From the IMG/VR virus record IMGVR_UViG_2778261064_000023: a DNA stretch of 12,643 nt, one strand, 5' to 3'. Both the position numbers and the translations under genes were made by a program. The notes beneath the pieces are model-generated. The model saw nothing but the letters and a program-made list of their open reading frames with translations, searched no databases and was not told the origin of the DNA. How positions within the stretch are numbered: position 1 is the first letter of the stretch; each line of letters opens with the position of its first letter. The DNA is from a virus (taxonomy: Duplodnaviria > Heunggongvirae > Uroviricota > Caudoviricetes). Positions 8,268-8,777 of the stretch are shown piece by piece.

Positions 8268-8777
8268 ATGGATCGGGAGCTTAAAAACCTGAAACTTAAT
8301 ATCAATCAACTCGCAGAACTGGCGGGAGTTTGCCGCCAGACAGTAGCGAAAAGGCTAAAGGACATTCAGCCAGCCGGAGGGCATGAAAAATTAAAGCTGT
8401 ACCGACTGACGGATATAATCAGCGCATTCATGAATATACCCGCCCCCGCATCACTCGAAGACATGGATCCACAAAGCCGTAAAGCCTGGTACCAGTCTGA
8501 GCGTGAGCGCCTTAAGTTCGAGCAGGAAACGGCTGAACTTATCCCCGCCGTGGATGTGCGCAGGGAGTTGGTTATTTTTGGGAAAATCTTAAGCGAGGAA
8601 CTGGCAAAACTCCCCGACATTCTGGCGCACGATGCAGGCATCAATCAGAACGCAGTAAACCGCGTCAGGCAGATTATTGATGACCTGTGCAGGCAAATTA
8701 CTACCAGAGTGATACAGGCTAACGACTGGCACGACAGCACGCCGCAGGTAGTGCAGGAGATTCACCAGGGGGAATAA
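8268..8777 (+). CDS. TerS-like wHTH protein (Nu1-type N-terminal DNA-binding domain); candidate PICI packaging-redirection (Rpp-like) protein
   Basis: 169 aa from the ATG at 8268 (GGAGG at a 4-nt spacing); N-terminus LNINQLAELAGVCRQTVAKRLKD...AGGHEKLKLYRLTDIISAF parallels lambda Nu1 as recalled (VNKKQLADIFGASIRTIQNW...RGGGKGNEVLYDSAAVIKWY). Confidence 0.55.
   Translation: MDRELKNLKLNINQLAELAGVCRQTVAKRLKDIQPAGGHEKLKLYRLTDIISAFMNIPAPASLEDMDPQSRKAWYQSERERLKFEQETAELIPAVDVRRELVIFGKILSEELAKLPDILAHDAGINQNAVNRVRQIIDDLCRQITTRVIQANDWHDSTPQVVQEIHQGE
8745..8769 (+). repeat. 25-bp direct repeat CAGGTAGTGCAGGAGATTCACCAGG, copy 1 (3' end of the TerS-like gene)
   Basis: Identical 25-mer at 9121-9145; flanks are similar but imperfect. 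Confidence 0.9.

Follow-up and report, generated by a model that had tools for sequence, protein, structure and literature searches.

A DUF1441-family small-terminase homologue beside a putative phage-type cos site in an Escherichia coli phage satellite

Results

The stretch of DNA analysed here, IMG/VR record IMGVR_UViG_2778261064_000023 (12,643 nt, hereafter the window), is by its gene content a phage satellite of the phage-inducible chromosomal island (PICI) type. Our target is the open reading frame (ORF) at 8268-8777 on the plus strand, which encodes a homologue of the small terminase subunit (TerS) and lies downstream of a putative cos site, cos1. The gene and its immediate surroundings contain the following features.

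8019-8044, plus strand: Rho-independent terminator hairpin with a U-run (-14.1 kcal/mol, z = -6.0 against shuffles)
8047-8132, plus strand: cos1, from alignment with regions upstream of DUF1441 terS genes
8047-8058, plus strand: cosQ-like GGGTCCTTCCGG, part of cos1
8076-8087, plus strand: putative 12-nt cohesive-end sequence GGGCGACGGACG, part of cos1, before an A/T-tract spacer
8120-8132, plus strand: R3-like CGTCATCATCATC, part of cos1, after the A/T-tract spacer
8259-8263, plus strand: Shine-Dalgarno GGAGG, read from the sequence, 4 nt before the ATG at 8268
8268-8777, plus strand: target gene, DUF1441 / PHROG 141 small-terminase homologue, 169 aa
8292-8432, plus strand: winged helix-turn-helix (HTH) DNA-binding domain, residues 9-55
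8463-8552, plus strand: residues 66-95, the most conserved stretch of the family by its invariant columns (M..RKAWYQSERERLKFEQE..L), a long helix
8553-8774, plus strand: residues 96-169, helical C-terminal half, of a satellite-only type in a classification of 120 homologues
8825-8850, minus strand: terminator-like hairpin for minus-strand transcripts, separating the target from a convergent terS unit of the Nu1 family

An initial annotation had described the product as TerS-like, and this is supported by matches to Pfam PF07278 (DUF1441; E = 4.7e-35, 121 bits with a cut-off of 35.1, profile positions 1-145 of 147) and to PHROG 141, 'terminase small subunit' (E = 2e-55). At identical coordinates in E. 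coli STEC383, RefSeq has a 'DUF1441 family protein' (WP_130532855.1), while no NCBIfam model matched the target. An alignment with 57 homologues covers the protein from end to end, and all 25 invariant columns of this 58-sequence alignment are present in it. A longer start at 8229, which would give 182 aa, was ruled out because all homologues begin at the MDxEL corresponding to 8268, their starts sharing the residues MD(R/K/N)EL. The coding sequence is intact in all 19 complete genomes that carry the target allele, and the ratio of nonsynonymous to synonymous substitution rates (dN/dS) against satellite alleles is 0.06-0.25 in the three segments with estimable dS, including 0.22-0.25 in the C-half (defined below). 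The ORF is therefore real and under purifying selection. Judged from these matches, the target is a complete small-terminase homologue of the Gifsy-2/mEp460/Stx-phage type (Stx, Shiga toxin). The initial annotation had given it a Nu1-type N-terminal winged HTH and a divergent C-terminal part. There was no match to Pfam Phage_Nu1 (PF07471) at E <= 0.01 and a weak one to the Nu1 family PHROG 57 (E = 3e-6), so that the protein belongs to a different TerS family from end to end; its C-half does diverge, but from that of the phage DUF1441 TerS proteins.

In the AlphaFold model (pLDDT 83), the winged HTH (residues 9-55) leads into four helices and a disordered tail. The predicted recognition helix (about residues 23-32) includes the family-invariant R23, Q24, T25 and R29, and a further helix at residues 68-89 falls within the stretch 66-95, which is also the joint at which N- and C-halves recombine, as located by mosaic breakpoints. 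The tail is weakly acidic (..NDWHDSTPQVVQEIHQGE), compared with a strongly acidic tail in the phage proteins. The N-terminal winged HTH resembles a TerS DNA-binding domain in structure. A Foldseek search of the PDB gave nothing below E = 0.1. Its best matches to the N-terminal domain were MtaN and BldC (probability 0.9-0.96, E 0.1-0.3), covering the HTH only. Sequence searches of PDB chains with the protein and with the 58-sequence profile returned chance-level hits only, neither Rpp nor Nu1.

The cos1 region is homologous to phage cos from cosQ to the start codon and keeps the same distance to that codon, with about 135 bp between the end of cos1 and the ATG. Its sub-sites are named by analogy with lambda cos, and the cohesive ends are putative. 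A column-by-column match was found with phage mEp460, Stx and other prophages, and sister satellites (55 invariant columns across nine sequences). In the phages, about 230 bp upstream of the DUF1441 terS gene are conserved, comprising a cosQ-like GGGTCCTCCCGG, a GGGCGG... core flanked by CGCGGAAAAAGG, A/T tracts and a CATCATCA element; cos1 likewise retains the phage-type spacer and an R3-like CATCATCATC element downstream of cosN. The hairpin at 8019-8044 adjoins cosQ on its left and forms the left border of the packaging cassette, and the order hairpin then cosQ is shared with the PICI EcCICFT073 and with satellites L007 and L015 (compared loci carry L numbers, protein alleles P numbers). 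The deposited start of the mEp460 record was considered as a cohesive end and rejected: the record begins at terS and has cos at its right end.

In Stx prophages and other lambdoid prophages, homologues 47-67% identical to the target sit directly upstream of a GpA-type large terminase subunit (TerL), a head-tail joining protein and a portal. By tblastn, TerL lies within 100 bp of the DUF1441 gene at every prophage locus and at 24 of the 31 species-representative loci. In mEp460, mEp043, Ayreon, phi458 and several Stx2a phages the family member carries the annotation 'terminase small subunit', with Gifsy-2 as reference, whereas the VT1-Sakai homologue (H0025) is listed merely as a hypothetical protein. 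These phage proteins are 158-168 aa long, and the target aligns with them without gaps to about homologue residue 150. In the literature searched, DUF1441 has three mentions, each in a phage genome description and none of them about satellites. Two 'phage' records of 15-16 kb that ranked with the best hits (ON470578 and ON470618) were considered as packaged satellites and rejected as partial phage genomes with TerL and tail genes. In one Stx prophage (L005:6474-8881), the TerL gene behind a DUF1441 terS is split after about 335 codons by an integrase-led satellite, an arrangement that matches the helper-embedded PICI configuration of PMC10111431. Taken with the conserved cos, the most likely origin of cos1 and the target is a copy of the cos-terS recognition cassette of lambdoid phages in which a DUF1441 TerS and a GpA-type TerL occur together.

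We compared the two parts of the protein separately, with the N-half taken as residues 1-95 and the C-half as residues 96-150. Identities for three pairs were:

Satellite L015 and phage L011: N-half 97%, C-half 60%
Satellite L007 and satellite L015: N-half 83%, C-half 91%
Phage L011 and phage L020: N-half 73%, C-half 98%

The genes of L015 and L011 have the same nucleotides throughout codons 1-39, and their synonymous sites are saturated after codon 95. Two phage loci, L020 and L063, have N-halves that are 100% identical and C-halves that are 46% identical; the phage DUF1441 terS genes (L020 with L063, L003 with L063) are mosaics that recombine in the conserved centre. Among the 120 homologues, satellite-type C-halves occurred in 17 clusters and a phage-type motif in 88. 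All seven alleles whose context was checked fit this split, three (P0005, P0006 and P0017) lying in satellites and four of phage type (P0086, P0008, P0026 and P0102) each immediately upstream of a GpA TerL and portal. The C-half of the window is 62% identical to the other satellite alleles, 51% to the commonest E. coli phage type and 31% to the Stx-phage type, and it keeps the family-conserved L112, P116, L119 and D138. Between satellites with different replication modules the satellite-type C-half is 91% conserved.

At the phage loci the type of TerS C-half follows the TerL N-terminus. Over 17 of them, the C-half identity correlated with identity over TerL residues 1-120 at r = 0.99, compared with r = 0.26 for the N-half. 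A C-half in contact with the TerL N-terminus, as in lambda, would agree with this, and physical linkage alone could also produce the correlation.

E. coli PICIs hijack lambda-, phi80- and 21-type phages via Rpp proteins, and the initial annotation placed the target among Rpp-like packaging-redirection factors. RppA, RppB and RppC of the cos-type PICIs were described by Fillol-Salom et al. 2019 (PMC6739421; structures 6HLK and 6HN7), who proposed that Rpp evolved from TerS, and transfer of EcCICFT073 with phage 80 strictly depends on the helper's own terS (PMC6092414). We located RppA (c1503, 144 aa, L002:7660-8094) in CFT073 by context. The satellites with the closest non-identical alleles (P0005, P0006 and P0017) run DUF4222, primase, in some an SSB (single-stranded DNA-binding protein) gene and a ClpP-capsid fusion gene, terminator hairpin and cos, and after cos come the DUF1441 gene, an ORF of 93-94 aa and then chromosomal genes. 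That ORF is 71-75% identical to c1504, the gene that follows rppA in EcCICFT073. Since hairpin, cos, DUF1441 gene and c1504-like ORF replace cos, rppA and c1504 in these sisters, the target is a positional analogue of Rpp; the shared c1504-like ORF and hairpin-cosQ junction thus make the DUF1441 and rppA cassettes alternatives in one slot. The window has its own c1504-like ORF, directly after the DUF1441 gene in the sisters but 2.77 kb away here:

11549-11833, plus strand: c1504-like ORF, 94 aa, 71% identical to EcCICFT073 c1504, PHROG 1561

The positional likeness was not matched by one of sequence. The target showed no similarity to RppA (BLASTP E = 5.3); for RppC (6HLK) in the PDB, phmmer gave no hit at E <= 1 and the 58-sequence family profile none at E <= 10; and RppA has no DUF1441 match. 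An hhalign comparison of the target family with RppA aligned only 24 HTH columns at 1% probability; such comparisons with the single sequences of RppA and of the island's Nu1-like protein (probabilities 1-2%) have low power and count as weak or negative evidence. Rpp proteins are 139-154 aa, 30-40 residues shorter than TerS and lacking its C-terminus (PMC9026076), whereas the target has the full TerS length; in Rpp-type PICIs the cos site is without the phage cosB (PMC9026076), whereas cos1 keeps the phage-like region past cosN. Membership of the Rpp family is therefore rejected. What Rpp and the target share is an N-terminal TerS-like winged HTH with a C-terminal part unlike that of phage TerS, the same kind of element and the same slot in it, although the target derives from a different TerS family with no detectable sequence relationship. 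The Rpp-like label accordingly holds for the rppA slot of EcCICFT073 and is not supported by similarity to RppA or RppC, by shortening or by the cos type. The nearer relatives are the phage small terminases (mEp460 gp01, Ayreon, phi458, VT1-Sakai H0025 and Stx2a TerS), which belong to the same family at full length and have the same winged HTH, invariant central motif and upstream cos; the target differs from them in having no TerL downstream, a C-half type unseen beside any TerL and no strongly acidic tail.

Unnamed 'terS homologs' are drawn in maps of Gram-negative PICIs, noted without study (PMC6092414). DUF1441 genes also occur in satellites from other genera (L032, L033 and L035). The C-half in L035 closely matches neighbouring phage alleles, while L032 and L033 keep the ERDCAL..DDLRDE motifs and differ in the tail, ..D(N/G)WP... 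Several DUF1441 satellites (L007:4827-6743 and L056:3841-5754) carry a 637-aa ClpP-protease/capsid fusion of the Gifsy-2/mEp460 head-module type, whereas EcCICFT073, the rppA carrier, instead encodes a major capsid and a head decoration protein. The morphogenesis genes and the packaging cassette thus appear matched to the helper lineage.

Downstream of the target the window contains further packaging features.

9262-9455, plus strand: cos2, lambda-like (cosQ 9262-9275; R3-like 9344-9360; R2-like 9400-9414; R1-like 9441-9455)
9483-10067, minus strand: Nu1-family TerS, 194 aa, Pfam Phage_Nu1 E = 8e-68
10070-10286, minus strand: cos3, phage-21-like (cosQ 10286-10273; GGGCGGCAGACG 10256-10245; R3-like about 10204-10187)
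11170-11251, minus strand: cos1', inverted copy of the cos1 core (cosQ-like 11251-11240; GGGCGACGGACG 11222-11211)

The target thus lies between cos1 (8047-8132) and cos2 (9262-9455), as the initial annotation had placed it, and the full-length, island-encoded Nu1-like TerS that it reported (10067-9483 on the minus strand) is confirmed. This gene, not the target, is the island's true counterpart of lambda Nu1 and phage 21 gp1. It lies directly downstream of cos3 in the canonical phage arrangement; no terS follows cos2 on the plus strand, and cos1' has neither an R3-like element nor a terS behind it. Compared with the TerS of a phage-21-like prophage, the Nu1-like protein is about 80% identical over residues 1-105 and about 35-40% beyond, showing the same pattern of conserved N-terminal and divergent C-terminal parts as the target. 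Its conserved residues 1-105 include Y50, E65 and D68-R70, which are sites of lambda and phi80 escape from Rpp.

The four cos-like sites on the island, present in both orientations, share a cosQ-like GGGTCCT motif, and three packaging specificities are recognisable: mEp460/Gifsy (cos1 and cos1'), lambda (cos2) and phage 21 (cos3). Because the same order, a Gifsy-type cos, gene, hairpin and then a lambda/21-type cos, is found in a metagenomic relative at 79% identity (L065), the carriage of more than one cos type is a conserved habit; this relative also has a counterpart of the 8825-8850 hairpin 3' of its gene. The 2.77-kb segment that separates the DUF1441 gene from the c1504-like ORF (8778-11548) holds cos2, the inverted Nu1 terS, cos3 and cos1'. 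Inverted repeats of 53 nt (8066-8118 and 11179-11231, 94% complementary) enclose it and could permit its inversion. A 29-nt direct repeat (8745-8773 and 9121-9149, 97% identical) makes the last 11 codons of the target recur 376 nt downstream, the second copy lying about 115 nt before cos2. Only that copy, with no gene, is present in L050, and the repeat looks like the scar of a cassette insertion or loss.

Occurrence of the two terS genes was uncoupled. An adjacent Nu1 gene was found in 11 of the 19 genomes with the target allele and was absent from the other eight, six of which keep only a 62-nt remnant; L051, the one of them that was aligned, encodes an identical DUF1441 protein and lacks window positions 9545-10050, most of the Nu1 gene. 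Conversely, the Nu1 gene occurs without the target allele in at least 11 further genomes, for example in L050, which has the Nu1 gene and cos1 and no DUF1441 gene, and the sister satellites L007, L015 and L056 have the DUF1441 gene alone. That each terS has its own cos and occurs independently argues against an obligate pair; it favours two separate cassettes that target different lineages of helper.

An island in the E. coli STEC383 chromosome, inserted between cspD/yljB and clpS, matches the window at 99.8% identity. The main landmarks of the window outside the packaging region are:

1-1239: tyrosine integrase, part of the PICI gene set
1571-1867: alpA, part of the PICI gene set
3920-6064: DUF927 primase, replication module

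Further island genes encode DUF4222, SSB, a ProQ/FinO protein and PerC, and no lysis, head or tail genes were found in the island. A tblastn search with TerL found none in the window or in the 28.6-kb STEC383 locus. The integrase, AlpA, the primase-replication module, a length of about 14 kb and insertion between core genes are those of a PICI satellite, and the gene set is that of the Gram-negative PICIs of Fillol-Salom et al. (PMC6092414); the reading of the element as a PICI-type satellite without a TerL is therefore supported. Nineteen complete E. coli genomes carry the target allele; flanks inspected for four of the islands place them at three different chromosomal sites.

Several other features of the island were recorded. 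Rfam matches above the gathering score, to the isrK Hfq-binding small RNA (80 bits) and to C4 antisense RNA (75 bits), adjoin each other on the plus strand in the Icd/Ash region (2732-2808 and 2830-2917). Just 3' of the primase gene, direct and inverted repeats of 21-34 nt (GGGACAA...ATTTTGGGAC) cluster at 6172-6309, which is probably a replication origin with iterons. The gene for the ProQ/FinO-family RNA chaperone (7117-7653) overlaps the first of two PerC-family regulator genes (7650-7937), and the second lies at 12272-12643; the two PerC copies share only 42% identity.

Discussion

We favour the reading, with a probability of roughly 0.5, that the target is the island's own cos1-recognising TerS and works with the TerL of a helper. 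A helper phage of the DUF1441-TerS/GpA-TerL type would induce the island, which would then replicate. The winged HTH of the target protein would bind the cos1 region downstream of cosN and the protein would bring the helper TerL to nick cosN, after which island concatemers would be packaged into helper capsids. We infer the DNA binding at cos1, the use of helper TerL and, above all, a contact with TerL that is direct rather than mediated by the helper TerS. A precedent by analogy is offered by the TerS of Staphylococcus aureus pathogenicity islands (SaPIs) acting at pac sites. Like the present island, the pac-type SaPIs are TerL-less satellites that have a TerS homologue beside their own packaging site and need the helper TerL; the target differs in being cos-type, not headful, in belonging to another protein family and in having a DNA-binding half that mimics the phage protein rather than being orthogonal to it.

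Several observations weigh against this reading. The cos and N-half of satellite L015 are 97-100% identical to those of phage L011, so that a TerS of its own would bring L015 no obvious advantage in DNA specificity. The C-half of the window is unlike both TerL-linked E. coli phage types (51% and 31%), and the protein lacks the strongly acidic tail of the phage alleles. If the correlation of r = 0.99 is the sign of a specific contact, the protein may fail to bind a known helper TerL directly. The promoter scan found no promoter-like site between cos1 and the ATG. Finally, a second DUF1441 locus is present in only 5 of 19 host genomes, which does not exceed the background of about 30%, although this count of co-residence does not separate the own-TerS model from its rivals.

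The same C-half observations count in favour of an Rpp-like role, which we regard as a possible but less probable account. As an adaptor or poison, the protein would co-assemble with the helper DUF1441 TerS through its N-terminal and central regions while its own C-half did not bind TerL; the mixed complex would then use the helper subunits to recruit TerL to the island cos, or would simply block helper packaging. Hetero-oligomers are plausible given a phage-like N-half and an invariant central helix, and a C-half no longer linked to the TerL N-terminus with which the phage version travels may have lost that contact; the missing acidic tail also favours this mode. The C-halves are specific to lifestyle in every allele placed in context (3/3 satellite-type in satellites, 4/4 phage-type beside TerL), the gene occupies the rppA slot of the sister PICIs (hairpin, cos, gene, c1504-like ORF), the island's Nu1-like TerS has diverged in its C-half over an equally conserved N-half, and a TerS origin of Rpp has been proposed by the Rpp authors themselves (PMC6739421). 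Set against this are the absence of sequence or profile similarity to RppA or RppC and a full-length protein where Rpp is 30-40 residues shorter (PMC9026076). Moreover, cos1 has a phage-type R3-like region and the DNA-contact helix has family-invariant residues, so a new cosB specificity, the defining property of Rpp, is not evident, and the C-half is under purifying selection and keeps L112, P116, L119 and D138. In the initial annotation the Rpp-like factor could form a heterocomplex with the Nu1-like TerS of the island (9483-10067) and so dispense with helper TerS. Both genes are intact in the window and adjacent in 11 complete genomes, and both proteins have a TerS-type winged HTH; however, they belong to distantly related TerS families (PHROG cross-hits of 3e-6 and 7e-10), lie on opposite strands behind separate cognate cos sites (cos1 of the mEp460 type, cos3 of the phage-21 type) and are found one without the other in both directions, including 8/19 target-allele genomes without the adjacent Nu1 gene. 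We consider this pairing very unlikely.

That the gene is a passenger, a functionless terS fragment gained with a prophage cos that alone matters, seems improbable to us. Recombination between phage and satellite has evidently run across cos and the 5' half of terS, as in the codons identical between L015 and L011, and the 29-nt repeat and L050, with cos1 and no gene, record cassette gain and loss. A relic is nevertheless hard to square with dN/dS well below 1 in every segment, with no frameshift or premature stop in any of 19 genomes, with the conservation of the satellite-type C-half across different replication modules and with the same gene position in independent satellite lineages. The Foldseek matches to MtaN and BldC would suit a MerR/BldC-like transcription regulator of island genes with no part in packaging, but they cover only a 50-residue winged HTH at E 0.1-0.3, a fold common to lambda TerS, RppC and MerR proteins (PMC6739421), and the full-length family stands in the TerS position in phages; we consider such a role very unlikely.

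A broader proposal, which we put forward tentatively and think rather unlikely, is that the satellite-type DUF1441 proteins (the target and P0005, P0006 and P0017) are a second, independently evolved Rpp-like family directed at helpers of the Gifsy-2/mEp460/Stx type. They would have kept the phage DNA-binding and oligomerisation half and replaced the TerL-matched C-half, and would therefore form mixed complexes with the helper TerS. If this is true, the second family would hinder packaging of the helper, Stx-converting phages included, and promote that of the island, and the satellite-type proteins would be a living intermediate in the transition from TerS to Rpp that the Rpp authors left open. 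Satellite-encoded TerS is already known as a kind; a second route to an Rpp-like function is the new possibility.

Alongside the Rpp-based hijacking of lambda-, phi80- and 21-type phages, our results suggest that sister PICIs carry an alternative cassette in the Rpp slot, built with the TerS and cos of another prophage lineage, one that is very common and includes Stx1 and Stx2 phages. Strain names of Shiga toxin-producing E. coli (STEC) are common among the carriers of the target allele. The split found here, in which the N-half goes with cos and the C-half with TerL in phages and satellites have C-halves of their own, gives a handle on the TerL-contacting part of TerS and on the path by which TerS could give rise to Rpp-like factors. 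Were the protein to work as proposed, the mEp460/Stx-type lineage could package these islands and might suffer interference from them, which would bear on how pathogenicity islands spread and possibly on the yield of Stx phages.

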